Below the pieces are notes generated by a model. The model ran no database searches. It saw only the letters and a list, made by a program, of their open reading frames with translations, and was not told where the DNA came from. From Chloroflexota bacterium (GTDB taxonomy: Bacteria > Chloroflexota > Limnocylindria > Limnocylindrales > CSP1-4), in the NCBI GenBank assembly GCA_025935655.1, contig JAICUV010000003.1:1-33908 (forward strand): a stretch of DNA of 33,908 bases. The letters run 5' to 3'. This document shows positions 15,589 to 21,737 of the stretch, piece by piece. Every line of letters starts with the position of its first letter. Within the stretch, counting starts at the first letter, position 1. The translations under genes and the position numbers were made by a program.

Positions 15589-16554
15589 TCAGCCTGGCAC
15601 ATAGCGCTCCTGCACGAGGCGGGCCGTCTGGCCCGGGAGCGCACCTGAGGCCACGACGTCCTCGAGCGTCAGCGTGGCGAACGTCGTGCCGTCGGCGAGG
15701 CGCTCGCGATAGCGCGCGACGAGGCCGGCGATGTCCGGGTTCGCCGCCGGGTGGACGACGAGGTAGCGGCCCCACGTCCACGCTCCGGCCTCGTGCTGGA
15801 GCATGGACAGCAGCAGCAGGTGCTCGAGCCACAGCTCCGCGAACTCGCCGCGCCCAGTGAACGCGTCGATGTCCTCCGACGCGAAGGCGCCGGATCGTCC
15901 CGCGACCTCGAGGTTGCGCCACAGGTTCTGGGGCTTCGGCTGCTCGCGCGCCAGGCGCTCGTGGTACTTCACGTCCACCGCCACGATCCCTCGCGTCCCG
16001 TCGCCTCGGTCGAGCACGAAGGCGGCGTCGAAGGCCCGGAGGCTGTTGAGCCACGCCGGGTCGAGGCGCCCGGGCGAGTGCGCGAACCGGACCTCGGCGA
16101 CGCGCCCCGGCGCATCGGGCACGAGCGCGTGGAGCGCGCGATCGGCGGCCGCCGGATCAGTCGCCAGGTCGCCGAACAGGTTGAACGAGAGCGCCTCGGA
16201 CGAGAGCAGGTCGGCCCACAGGCGCTGGTGATCGAAGCTCTGGTGGCGCTCGACGAACGCCGTGCGGGCCCGCGCCGAGGCGAGTGCCCCGGGAGTGAGC
16301 AGGTTCGCGCCCGTCTCGCGCCCGTACTCGAGCGGCATCCGGCTTCCGACCAGACGGACCGGTCGACCCTCGACGGGCAGGTACGGCTGCGTGCCGATCG
16401 GGATCGCGCGCGCCTCGCGCCAGCGAGCCTGGTGCAGGCGCGTGCGTCGCCGGAACGCCGTCATCGCCGGGCGCCTGGGGAGTGCGTCCTCCCTGTCCCA
16501 GCACCACGCGGCGTCGAGCTCGTCGCTCGTCGGGGCGTCCTGGTCGTCGGGCAT
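15589..16554 (-). CDS. PGN_0703-like putative PD-(D/E)XK restriction-endonuclease-fold protein, 321 aa
   Basis: LLSSEALSFNLFG, HSPGR-x-DP, AFD...IVAVDVKYHE (D...D-x-K) and ELWLEHLL match my recollection of this family's pattern; leaderless-type ATG. Confidence 0.65.
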   Translation of the reverse strand: MPDDQDAPTSDELDAAWCWDREDALPRRPAMTAFRRRTRLHQARWREARAIPIGTQPYLPVEGRPVRLVGSRMPLEYGRETGANLLTPGALASARARTAFVERHQSFDHQRLWADLLSSEALSFNLFGDLATDPAAADRALHALVPDAPGRVAEVRFAHSPGRLDPAWLNSLRAFDAAFVLDRGDGTRGIVAVDVKYHERLAREQPKPQNLWRNLEVAGRSGAFASEDIDAFTGRGEFAELWLEHLLLLSMLQHEAGAWTWGRYLVVHPAANPDIAGLVARYRERLADGTTFATLTLEDVVASGALPGQTARLVQERYVPG

Positions 16555-19136: not shown

Positions 19137-20501
19137 TCAGCCGGACGGGACCAGCCGGCCCGGGCCCGGCGTGCCGAGAATCTCGCGGGTGGTGGCGAGG
19201 CCCCAGGCGTCAAGGTCCGCGAGCCGGTCGGACGAGACCCGCAGGCCGCCGTGGCGGGCGATGTGCGCCGCCCACGCGTCGCGGCGCTCGACCGCGGGGC
19301 GGACGATCAGGCAGTCGGGGTCGTTCGTCCAGAACCGGCCGTGCATGAACGCCCGGCCGGCGCTCGTGAGCACGGCGCTCCGGGCGCCGGGCTCGGAGAG
19401 GTCGCCCGAGGACGGCTCCCAGTGGGGGGCCGTGTCCGGGCCGACGCGCATCGCGTCGACGAGGCCGACGGTCGGCAGCACCGGCGCACCGCAGCCGAGG
19501 AGGTACGCGTCGCCGATCGAGGCGCGCACGAGCTCCATGCCGCGGCGGTACGCCTCGAGCGGCGGCACCGGCTCGTACCGCCGGCCTGGGACCGCGGCCG
19601 ACCAGACGAAGTCGGCCTTGACATAGTCGATGCCCAGCGACCGCAGCCCGCCCAGCGCCGACGCGAGCGACGCCGCCGCGGCCGGATGGGTCGTGTCGAG
19701 CGCGTACAGGTCCTGGTCCCAGTTGCGCCCGACGACGGCCGCGCCGCGGTCGTCCGCGACCAGCCATTCGGGATGGGCGGCGGCGGTCGCGCTCCGGGCG
19801 CCGACGAGGAACGGGGCGAGCCAGGCGCCCGCTCGGCGGCCCGTCGCCCGGATCCGCCCGACGAGCGCCGCGAAATCGCCGAAGGCGGGCGACCAGGCCG
19901 CCCAGTCGCCGATGCCCGCCTGCCAGCCGTCGTCGACCTGGACGACCTCGACCGGCAGCCCGAGGTCGTCCATCGCCCGGACGTTCTCGTCGACGTCGGC
20001 AGCCGTGACCGCGGTGAAGTAGTGGTACCAGCTGCACCAGCCCACCGGGGGGCGACGGATCGGCGGCACGCCCGCCCGCGCGGCGAACCCGTCGGCCCAG
20101 CGGGCGAGCGCGCCCTCGAGGCCGCCTGGGCCGTTGTCGGTGTAGTGCTCGACGGGGCCGTCGGCGAAGACGGCGAGGAGGCCGTCCTCGAACAGTGCGG
20201 CGATCGACGGCACGCCGAGGCGGGCCCCGGATGCTGCGAACACGTGGGTGGCCGCGTCCGCGGCCGGGCGCACCGCGAGCAGCCCCTCGCCTTGGAACCC
20301 TCCCGCGACCCAGCCGCTGCGGGGGCGGGCGTTGAGGCGGTGCAGCCGCTCGTCCCTCGGGCGGATCGGCGTATCGCCGAGCCCGTACGTCGTCGTCGGG
20401 GTCCAGGACTGCCAGCCGTGCTCGAACACCCGAGCGCTCCGGGCGTCGACCGCCAGTGTCGCGACGGGCTCGAAGCCGGCGGGCATGCGGGGAGGTCTCA
20501 C
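19137..20501 (-). CDS. GH36 alpha-galactosidase-like glycoside hydrolase, about 454 aa
   Basis: GWQSW, GWCSWY, QVDDGWQ, YVKADF (nucleophile), LGCGAP, MRVGPDT (acid/base), NDPDCL. GTG 20501 has CACGAT 6 nt upstream; ATG 20486 is an alternative start. Confidence 0.9.
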   Translation of the reverse strand: MRPPRMPAGFEPVATLAVDARSARVFEHGWQSWTPTTTYGLGDTPIRPRDERLHRLNARPRSGWVAGGFQGEGLLAVRPAADAATHVFAASGARLGVPSIAALFEDGLLAVFADGPVEHYTDNGPGGLEGALARWADGFAARAGVPPIRRPPVGWCSWYHYFTAVTAADVDENVRAMDDLGLPVEVVQVDDGWQAGIGDWAAWSPAFGDFAALVGRIRATGRRAGAWLAPFLVGARSATAAAHPEWLVADDRGAAVVGRNWDQDLYALDTTHPAAAASLASALGGLRSLGIDYVKADFVWSAAVPGRRYEPVPPLEAYRRGMELVRASIGDAYLLGCGAPVLPTVGLVDAMRVGPDTAPHWEPSSGDLSEPGARSAVLTSAGRAFMHGRFWTNDPDCLIVRPAVERRDAWAAHIARHGGLRVSSDRLADLDAWGLATTREILGTPGPGRLVPSG

Positions 20502-20638
20502 CAGGCCATCGTGGGTCGACTCGCCGCGGGCGGCAAGCGCAGCCGCGCCGGCAGGGGATCGGCCGGGTGCGCGTCCGGCGCCCACATGCTCCCTTTCGCG
20601 TGGCGCGGGACCAACGCGGAAAACGCACAGGGTCCCGT

Positions 20639-21222
20639 CCCAACTGCGCCACCCAGTGTGGGAAACCCGCTGACCTCAGTCGCAGACAGGGCGATCGGAC
20701 GCGATGCGAAGTCCCAGGCCCGTCATGTCATCGCCCCCGATCTGGCCGAACGTCGAGACCGCGCCTGGCGCCTTCGGGTGGCGGGCGATCACCATGCACA
20801 CGTCACCCCTCATTGCGGGAGCAGTCGCCTGCCAGCACGTCGAGCTATCGGCCCAGTCGGGCAGCGGTCCGGGGCAGGCGCGCGCCTCAACGACAATCCT
20901 CCCGCCGCTTGCCTCGAGCACGCCCTTCCAGTTCCGGGCCAGGTTGTTGACGAAGAGCTTGGCGACGCCCTTGCAGTCGTCAGCCTGCACCCACGAGCAG
21001 GTCGCGGTCCAACCATCGAAATGCACGGTCGCCTCAGGCATGCACGCCCCGACCAAGAGGAGTGCGGTCGCTGCTACCGCGAGACCCTTCATCCGGGTAT
21101 CCCCCACTGCTTCATTGCTCGATCTTCGCCGTTTCTCGAACGCTTTACACCTGGTCTCCGGTTGCCGTTAGGACCGGGAGTCCGCAACCGGGAGGTTTCA
21201 CACACCCGGTGGCGCAGTTGGG
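20639..21222. mobile_element. Putative non-autonomous cassette bounded by 29-bp imperfect inverted repeats
   Basis: Left 20639-20667 CCCAACTGCGCCACCCAGTGTGGGAAACC; reverse complement of right 21194-21222 is CCCAACTGCGCCACCGGGTGTGTGAAACC (26/29, outer 15 bp perfect). Lower-GC interior, no transposase, no clear target-site duplication. The repeats are certain; mobility is inferred. Confidence 0.55.
20676..21092 (-). CDS. Hypothetical Cys-rich lipoprotein, 138 aa
   Basis: GGGGGA RBS, ATG 21092; MKGLAVAATALLLVGAC lipobox; six further Cys; many A/T-ending codons unlike neighbouring genes. Confidence 0.75.
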   Translation of the reverse strand: MKGLAVAATALLLVGACMPEATVHFDGWTATCSWVQADDCKGVAKLFVNNLARNWKGVLEASGGRIVVEARACPGPLPDWADSSTCWQATAPAMRGDVCMVIARHPKAPGAVSTFGQIGGDDMTGLGLRIASDRPVCD

Positions 21223-21235
21223 CCACGTCGCAGGC

Positions 21236-21265
21236 TTGACAGGTGACTGATTGGTCACGTATTGT
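21236..21265 (+). promoter_or_regulatory. sigma70-type promoter TTGACA-N18-TATTGT with palindromic operator GTGAC-N6-GTCAC (21243-21258) in the spacer
   Basis: Directly visible; perfect -35 hexamer; 34 nt upstream of ATG 21300. Confidence 0.75.
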
Positions 21266-21299: not shown

Positions 21300-21737
21300 A
21301 TGGCGAGCAGCACGAACACCACGAGGGCGACCGACGGCTTCACGGCGGAGGAGAAGGCAGCCGTCAAGGAACGCGCACGGGAGCTCAAGGCGGCGAGCTC
21401 GAAGGCGGACGGCGAGCGCGACCTGCGGCAGAAGATCGCCGAGATGCCGGAGCCGGACAAGTCGATGGCCGAGCGTGTGGACGCGGTCGTGATGGCCGCC
21501 GCCCCGGAGCTCGAGCGCAAGACGTACTACGGGATGCCCGCCTACGCGAAGGACGGCAAGACGCTGTGCTTCTTCAAGCCGAAGTCCAAGTTCAAGGTCC
21601 GCTACGCGACCTTCGAGCTCCAGCCGGACGCGATGGTCGACGACGGCTCGATGTGGCCGGTCGCGTTCGCGCTGACCGAGCTGACCGAGGCGAACGAGGC
21701 TCGGATCACGGAGCTCGTGAAGCGGGCGACGCGCTAG
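21300..21737 (+). CDS. DUF1801 (YdhG-like) domain protein, 145 aa
   Basis: GGAG RBS, ATG 21300. GFTAEEKAAVKERARELK, KIAEMPEPD, YGMPAYAKDGK, KFKVRYAT, DDGSMWPVAFALTEL. Confidence 0.85.
   Translation: MASSTNTTRATDGFTAEEKAAVKERARELKAASSKADGERDLRQKIAEMPEPDKSMAERVDAVVMAAAPELERKTYYGMPAYAKDGKTLCFFKPKSKFKVRYATFELQPDAMVDDGSMWPVAFALTELTEANEARITELVKRATR

Follow-up and report, generated by a model that had tools for sequence, protein, structure and literature searches.

A lipoprotein gene between terminal inverted repeats in an uncultured soil Chloroflexota bacterium: a probable mobile insertion cassette and its likely parent elements

A 33,908-bp stretch of DNA from an uncultured soil Chloroflexota bacterium (Limnocylindrales, CSP1-4; assembly GCA_025935655.1, contig JAICUV010000003.1, positions 1 to 33,908), hereafter the window, contains a 584-bp unit at 20639-21222 in which a single predicted lipoprotein gene is tightly enclosed by a pair of inverted repeats. 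How did one gene come to lie between such ends? An earlier note on this DNA, made from the sequence alone, proposed a non-autonomous unit whose movement relies on an enzyme supplied in trans from elsewhere, either similar to a mobile insertion cassette (MIC) or built on repeats of the repetitive extragenic palindrome (REP) type. Our analysis favors the former: the unit is very probably a MIC, a non-autonomous derivative of an insertion sequence (IS) family of these Chloroflexota, because the same ends bound a transposase-encoding element and unrelated cargo in relatives.

The repeat itself was borne out by recomputation. Its arms (20639-20667 and 21194-21222) are 29 nt each, are complementary at 26/29 positions (90%) with 526 nt in between, and are identical over their outer 15 nt, which gives two matches where 0.09 are expected (0/100 shuffles reach two). 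The two spacings first reported also hold: 8 nt separate the left arm from the stop codon of the cargo (TCA, 20676-20678 on the + strand), and 13 nt separate the end of the right arm from the TTGACA at 21236, the -35 box of the next gene. Metagenome contigs bridge both junctions, the left in four runs of four studies and the right in runs X5 and X2 (in X2 by just 28 nt), so the junctions are real and not an assembly artefact. At least half of the words sampled from this strain were present in 16 metagenome runs.

An inverted repeat could arise by chance in a GC-rich genome, and the 15-mer match is not significant by itself because 244 perfect 15-mer inverted pairs within 3 kb are found in the 3.46-Mb assembly. 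However, pairs of at least 26/29 (12-mer seed, arms 50-1500 nt apart) number only six in the whole assembly, including two larger inverted duplications, and none occurs in four simulated second-order Markov genomes of equal size. The motif also recurs in 11 other genomes of the genus, with no control hits, and chance can be considered excluded.

Searching the genome and its relatives for the repeat, as the earlier note advised, gave a divided result. In the assembly that contains the window, no sequence other than the two arms matches (by exact pattern, blastn-short, and weight matrix); this assembly is 87% complete and in 407 contigs, and repeats often go unassembled. In the genus, a 28-mer with up to 3 mismatches finds 19 sites in 12/70 genomes (reversed control, 0). 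When these sites are aligned, conservation extends ~42 nt inward (CAACTGCGCCACC..GTGTG.GAAACC...GGTTATGAAG) and has a sharp boundary at the outer end, defining a terminal inverted repeat (TIR) family with the consensus NNCAACTGCGCCACC[CA/GG]GTGTG[G/T]GAAACC, then GGTTATGAAG. The TIRs are roughly 26-42 bp long and are present in 1-5 copies per relative genome. The left TIR of the window (20639..20667, + strand) scores 47.3 on a weight matrix from 28 family sites, and the right TIR (21194..21222, - strand), which still has a recognisable subterminal segment in its continuation CCTCCCGGTTGCGGAC, scores 60.6 on the 46-nt family matrix. In a class-wide sample the motif is found in 7/301 genomes, none of them outside the window's own family (f1, 6/91; f2-f5, 0/209), and a scan of one genome per species places the 22-mer in five further Chloroflexota/Chloroflexia/Limnocylindria metagenome-assembled genomes (MAGs). 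A Phenylobacterium locus (L019) contains the 22-mer only, with the rest of the motif absent; we took it as chance and left it out of the site counts.

The identity of these ends is revealed by one relative, in which two convergent TIR copies bound a 2621-bp element (G008:C11; L044 4104-6724) flanked by an exact 9-bp duplication, CCTGGGTCA, in the order duplication, one base, CAACTG ... CAGTTG, duplication. This element encodes a small membrane-protein open reading frame (ORF) and a 663-aa ORF that matches the Pfam family Transposase_mut (PF00872) with 28.1 bits (gathering score 21, E 1.2e-6), as well as MULE and the treble-clef zinc-finger domain DUF4379. Autonomous copies are 2182-2621 bp long with TIRs of about 28-42 bp, and their transposases, of 600-670 aa, combine N-terminal Cys/His and C-terminal DUF4379 zinc fingers. 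Three acidic residues (D190, D263, and E370, spaced by 73 and 107) do not vary among 17 aligned transposase relatives and likely form the catalytic DDE triad. The window repeats are thus members of the TIR family that bounds a DDE-transposase element with an exact 9-bp duplication.

The same TIRs, again in convergent orientation, bound unrelated cargo in other genomes, in two cases with exact 8-9-bp duplications. These sister cassettes include a 1374-bp unit with a 359-aa lipoprotein (G035; 8-bp duplication GCGGCCGG) and an 886-bp unit with a DUF4760 protein (L021; 9-bp duplication GCACCGCCC). In G016 (C19; L043 4881-12242), only 6 nt separate a 1767-bp hipB/hipA cassette from a decayed autonomous copy, which contains a nested IS110-like gene; the pair is bracketed by a 7-bp repeat, GGCATCC, which suggests that both moved as one composite. 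Two further units contain a DUF2975 membrane protein (G360, 934 bp) and no called ORF (G012, 903 bp). What lies between inverted pairs in relatives is therefore variable cargo and, in G008, a transposase gene, in keeping with the earlier note's proposal of a unit mobilized in trans. By analogy with these sister units, the window unit would also have moved as one piece.

Several observations weigh against this assignment. The earlier note saw no convincing target-site duplication, and indeed no exact one of at least 5 bp surrounds the window unit; a degenerate one is nevertheless present in the geometry of the G008 element, with a left copy, GGTCCCGTC (20631..20639), followed by C and the terminus CAACTG, and a right copy read from the sequence, GGCCACGTC (21221..21229), the two matching at 7/9 positions, for which the chance expectation is roughly a few percent once offsets are allowed (an estimate, not computed). 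The left TIR consists of the 29-nt terminal part only and lacks the GGTTATGAAG-like subterminal segment of most family ends, since the cargo stop codon is only 8 nt away. Among the sister cassettes, G360, G012, and the inner G016 pairs have no duplications. No contig in four metagenome runs joins 20638 to 21223, as an empty site would, in contigs that drop rare variants. The neighboring GH36-like gene has no match at E<=1e-30 in 69 other genomes of the genus, so the interval between it and the DUF1801 gene cannot be aligned in relatives. Lone TIRs occur upstream of DUF2975 genes in several genomes, and some of these ends may be retained for another reason. Finally, only two TIR copies, and no cognate transposase, were found in the assembly, and mobility in this genome is therefore hypothetical.

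Some of these points would also fit two separate events, in which the lipoprotein gene is resident and the repeats are lone ends of two insertions, or of one element split by recombination, so that the 584 bp never moved whole. Under such a scenario the missing exact duplication and the left end without its subterminal segment would be unsurprising, but both ends are correctly convergent and the 7/9 duplication is placed exactly in the family geometry. Lone ends do exist (in the 1.5-8 kb examined, 13 loci showed a single end, most upstream of a DUF2975 gene), and insertions have repeatedly struck the promoter beside the right end, a hot spot; the left outward flank, however, contains no TTGACA, which fits the far side of one insertion event, and sister cargo units of 0.9-1.4 kb with exact duplications do transpose whole. 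The GC content at third codon positions (GC3) of the cargo is also below that of its neighbors. We consider two separate events unlikely.

A MIC is thus the preferred reading, and it implies the following history. A transposase acting in trans would bind both TIRs and move the lipoprotein gene as one unit, possibly by copy-out/paste-in through a circle, by analogy with IS256. The landing site would have been ~15 bp before the -35 box that serves the DUF1801 gene, so that this promoter was spared and the cargo came to lie upstream of the GH36-like gene, in the same orientation. This is probably an old, stranded insertion, immobile here unless a transposase arrives from outside, because its TIRs match at only 26/29 positions and its duplication at 7/9, the left subterminal part is gone, and no cognate transposase was found. 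The earlier note saw no transposase in the unit itself; across the window, a Pfam scan of 26 ORFs returned no transposase or integrase family (0/26), and we found no cognate transposase in the 87% complete assembly either.

MICs are a described class, as outlined in PMC3913671, which covers MIC231, mobilized by the IS231A transposase in Bacillus cereus, as well as mic-qnrD and mic-qnrS2; the earlier note's suggestion of an undescribed system is therefore not sustained, the more so as the parent falls in the Mutator/IS256 superfamily. As in those cassettes, the window unit lies between two inverted repeats that are the ends of an autonomous IS, with no transposase inside or nearby, and its sister units have target duplications (exact 8 bp in G035 and 9 bp in L021), while the window unit has only the degenerate 7/9 match. 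It differs from MIC231 in that the parent here belongs to the Mutator/IS256 superfamily and not to IS4/IS231, the host is an uncultured soil Chloroflexota bacterium, the spacing to TTGACA is fixed, and mobilization in trans is predicted from sequence comparison. The window unit thus adds to a known kind of element, and what is unusual is the TTGACA spacing of the insertions, discussed below. Its interest also lies in a transposase-less single-gene cassette of an uncultured soil lineage being tied to an autonomous parent and sister cassettes.

Could the repeat pair instead have been co-opted, as an RNA stem that brings the 5' and 3' ends of the lipoprotein transcript together over a long range or as the sites of an invertible segment, so that its present role is regulatory? 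The arms do pair in the minimum-free-energy fold of the - strand transcript (20630-21230), but the whole fold is no better than that of shuffles (z = -1.07; 2/20 as good) and Rfam returns 0 matches at E<=1. When the window is compared with G016 at the same promoter, the motif is conserved at 27/28 positions and the adjoining 15-nt spacer at 8/15; recent independent insertions explain this conservation equally well, and the variable motif positions occur in all four combinations, i.e. without covariation. An invertible segment is further disfavored by the absence of any recombinase in the window and of any strand-changing joint at the repeats listed in the four runs, whose contigs drop rare variants. 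Co-option of the pair is very improbable.

Several other classes were considered and set aside. The 8-9-bp duplications and the DDE transposase led us to drop both a Xer/pdif-module reading, with 28-bp sites in inverted pairs (the dif site of the genome was not identified), and a regulator-operator reading of the motif, though a co-opted role of that kind is conceivable. An integron cassette, a possibility prompted by an array in G018 described below, does not fit ends that are inverted TIRs and not direct sites of the attC kind, the duplications in sister units, or the lack of an integrase in the window. The unit is not a miniature inverted-repeat transposable element (MITE) in that it holds a complete 138-aa ORF conserved in 24 protein clusters. 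The REP-like alternative of the earlier note, or a REP/REPIN system, does not agree with the two copies in the assembly and 1-5 per relative, the target duplications, and the DDE transposase partner (RAYT genes were not searched for).

What sets this family apart is where it inserts. An exact outward TTGACA lies 13-15 nt from CAACTG at 9/28 distinct ends and at none elsewhere in the 45-nt flank (binomial P ~7e-32, at a genome hexamer frequency of 2e-5 per position). In the three elements with exact duplications, TTGACA follows the duplication at a distance of 5-6 nt and is present on a single side, and it is thus part of the target and not of the element. Insertions therefore sit with the duplication 5-6 bp upstream of TTGACA, which accounts for the 13-nt gap between the right TIR of the window and the -35 box. 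The window follows the same rule: its right end fits the spacing, with TTGACA 6 nt beyond the right duplication copy, and its left outward flank lacks the hexamer.

The same spacing extends to elements with different ends. The relative L086, 48% identical and with a different TIR, has an 8-bp duplication, TGTGCGGC, followed by 6 nt and TTGACA. A second end-sequence family (CCTGTGTGTTATAGGCGTTTGG) is present in 6/69 other genomes of the genus (L105-L110) and includes a 126-bp gene-less element (L110) with an 8-bp duplication, CCCGCGAC, then 6 nt and TTGACA, as well as a 763-bp unit (L109) that contains a 179-aa lipoprotein, has a 7/8 duplication, and lies at the same ArsR-type promoter as the window unit. 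In L106, an ORF beside the second-family end, at most a candidate transposase of that family, shares just 22% identity with the G008 transposase (E 0.043 in a single comparison). The second-family end CCTGTGTGTTATAGGCGTTTGG also turns up beside the window unit, on a single contig in each of metagenome runs X1 and X8, where it follows 21229 or leads into 21220; part of the natural population therefore has a second element within the same 8-10 bp.

The right TIR of the window adjoins the promoter of the DUF1801 gene (21236..21265, + strand), with hexamers TTGACA-18 nt-TATTGT that match 10/12 consensus positions where 0 such sites are expected (a strong, predicted promoter) and a GTGAC-N6-GTCAC palindrome between them. 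At least 7/20 distinct copies of this ArsR-type promoter have a repeat-family end 12-15 nt upstream, and these ends belong to three end-sequence families: family-1 ends in the window, G016, and L021, and in G178 what looks by eye like a diverged copy of that family; a second-family end in G089; and a third repeated motif in G011 and G088. The remaining copies among the 20 have no such end. In G011 and G088 the third motif (about CCTTGTGCGTCAAGGACGGTTGG; L117, L132, and L108) has the same distance to TTGACA, and in G034 it directly adjoins a second-family end. Relatives share the conserved promoter, TTGACA-N-GTGAC-N6/7-GTCAC-N-TATTGT, ahead of an ArsR/HTH_20-AHSA1 fusion gene and then DUF1801; the window has DUF1801 only, without the fusion gene. 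In the G007 MAG, a TIR junction at C51:1280-1325 (L024) reads ...GGCGCCTG|CCCAACTG, and the same 18 nt lead into an unoccupied promoter on C103 (L134); this contig pair may be a filled/empty polymorphism, with only 18 nt before a run of N.

On balance, we lean toward the view that the parent elements form an uncatalogued clade of the Mutator/IS256 superfamily that chooses its target by reading the -35 hexamer, in either orientation, such that 5-6 bp separate the end of the 8-9-bp duplication from the TTGACA downstream. The host promoter would be left intact, certain promoters, such as the ArsR type, would serve as recurrent docking sites, and transposase-less derivatives would distribute small envelope and toxin-antitoxin genes there. 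No published account of such promoter-hexamer targeting was found in our literature search (subscription journals and ISfinder were outside its scope). If the spacing reflects target recognition, these elements would rank among the few bacterial cases of insertion that is directed to promoters yet spares them, and they could be a natural template for safe-site integration tools.

How does the parent relate to known transposases? IS256 is a compact element of ~1.3 kb with a single ~400-aa transposase, a similar DDE spacing, and 8-9-bp target duplications. The parent family resembles it in a transposase above the PF00872 gathering score, three invariant acidic residues, TIRs of roughly 26-42 bp, and duplications of 9, 8, 9, and 8 bp in G008, G035, L021, and L086. 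It differs in element length (2182-2621 bp), in a 600-670-aa transposase with added zinc fingers, and, in G008, in a second small ORF. Two results detract from a close affiliation: the G008 transposase scores 25 bits against the 150-bit cut-off of the NCBIfam IS256 equivalog NF033543, and the transposase profile matches the solved 'Mutator family transposase' 6xg8 at E=0.25 only. Because it is far under the cut-off and matches 6xg8 so weakly, we place the transposase, from its sequence, as a putative distant member of the Mutator/IS256 superfamily and not a member of IS256 proper. The earlier note had counted ends of a known IS family against its own proposal, and this is partly what was found, in that the parent transposase belongs to a known superfamily.

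IS256 is described as transposing by a two-step circle pathway (PMC3299598). Eukaryotic Mutator-like elements, according to PMC6446971, show a tendency to land within or close to genes and to pick up host sequences. Among the latter, Pack-MULEs share the transposase superfamily of the parent element and are comparable by analogy only: they are eukaryotic, with long TIRs and gene fragments, whereas the cassettes described here contain whole bacterial genes and have a target at a defined distance from a promoter hexamer.

Relatives of the G008 transposase extend beyond the genus. In 90% clusters there are 28 at E<=1e-5, many on 2.2-2.6 kb contigs, and none of the 28 is named by any source; among 50% representatives, 485 proteins match at E<=1e-30, most of those listed through the zinc-finger repeats only. 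In other genera of the family, 18/201 genomes match at E<=1e-20. Transposases from other genera that are 48-50% identical have related but distinct perfect TIRs, e.g. CCTCTGCGCCAGGCCCGGTGGGTAAA, indicating that ends and enzyme diverged together. Judged by absent names and NCBIfam cut-offs only, the parent element looks uncatalogued, and the wider value of the window unit lies in this parent family of unnamed proteins, with a Mutator-like DDE core, zinc fingers, and fixed TTGACA spacing. The window's own genome also contains a 2125-bp element with perfect 30-nt TIRs (C28:2231-4355), whose ORF is 31% identical (206 aa) to the G008 transposase. Its sequence marks it as a different, predicted Mutator-like IS, and this hit is the only distant one in the assembly.

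The cargo gene (20676..21092, - strand) encodes a predicted 138-aa lipoprotein with a signal peptide, the lipobox LVGAC, and six further conserved Cys in the mature part, in agreement with the Cys-rich lipoprotein first described, and it is the sole ORF of coding-like composition inside the unit. The lower GC content that the earlier note remarked on is real (0.661 for the unit, 0.729 for the genome) but modest, and the dip runs past the end of the unit to ~22500; the cargo GC3 is 0.82, compared to 0.83-0.98 for the 25 window ORFs passing the GC3 filter. Upstream of the gene, the non-coding 5' region inside the unit (21093..21193, - strand) shows no sigma-70-like promoter in a consensus scan and no DNA homology to other loci that hold the lipoprotein family. 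The protein matches no Pfam or NCBIfam family. Its fold model, with a predicted local distance difference test (pLDDT) score of 81.2, is a small alpha+beta domain with only weak NTF2/cystatin-like structural matches: Foldseek against PDB returns nothing at E<=0.001, and the best VIA-align Z scores are 5.0-5.6 (periplasmic TraM/DotI/NTF2-like proteins, amine-oxidase N-domains, and a designed cystatin fold), a range that is common by the tool's own standard.

The lipoprotein gene is patchily distributed, being present in 3/36 genomes of the genus that were searched, and its occurrence at this locus is explained by its being carried by the cassette. We rejected the idea that the lipoprotein family always moves with the repeats, as the TIR motif is found at 0/21 other lipoprotein-family sites (four in genus genomes and 17 on metagenome contigs). 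DNA similarity to these sites is limited to 20676-21026, within the ORF. The cargo gene thus appears to have been captured and not to have co-evolved with the TIRs.

To the left of the unit lies a melibiase/GH36-like gene (19137..20585, - strand) on the same strand as the cargo, with its start codon 53 nt from the left TIR and the cargo 90 nt upstream. Because it is co-oriented with and close to the cassette, the GH36-like gene may be transcribed by read-through from it. To the right, the DUF1801 gene occupies 21300..21737 (+ strand). In each of the four runs, the summed contig depth increases 5- to 10-fold within this gene, at 21494-21570, and many loose contig ends fall at 21528 and 21560; this stretch is common to other organisms in the samples.

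Other repeats were observed in these genomes. Units of ~128-131 nt with 15-16-nt perfect inverted repeats (GGACTCTACGGTTCCG; GCGGCTGAACGGTGGC) occur at several places in the window's own genome (C190:3800-3927, C278:1769-1896, C359:1964-2092, and C380:20644-20771; also C308:784-912 and C388:10737-10867) and may be MITEs or structured RNAs. In G018 (C6:1469-19208, L012; also C10 and C2, L111 and L112), a 23-28-nt repeat, gtCCGCCAGCGTGCGGGAATGTCACttga, is present in at least 20 direct copies on the same strand, 225-4517 nt apart, with small orphan genes between them, mostly on the opposite strand. Of 14 ORFs tried in this stretch, 13 have no Pfam hit; one of the small genes is an 80%-identical homologue of the window cargo. 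The layout resembles an array of cassettes, but the repeat lacks an attC-like palindrome; the first 30 kb showed no integrase. In 15 other genomes of the genus the repeat is found 1-3 times. It bears a loose likeness, by eye, to the TIR core, and a link between the two could not be established. Elsewhere in the window, a PD-(D/E)XK nuclease gene (PDDEXK_13, REase-ARP; 15589-16554, - strand) is located between a P-type ATPase gene and a Rieske/DUF2231 gene.

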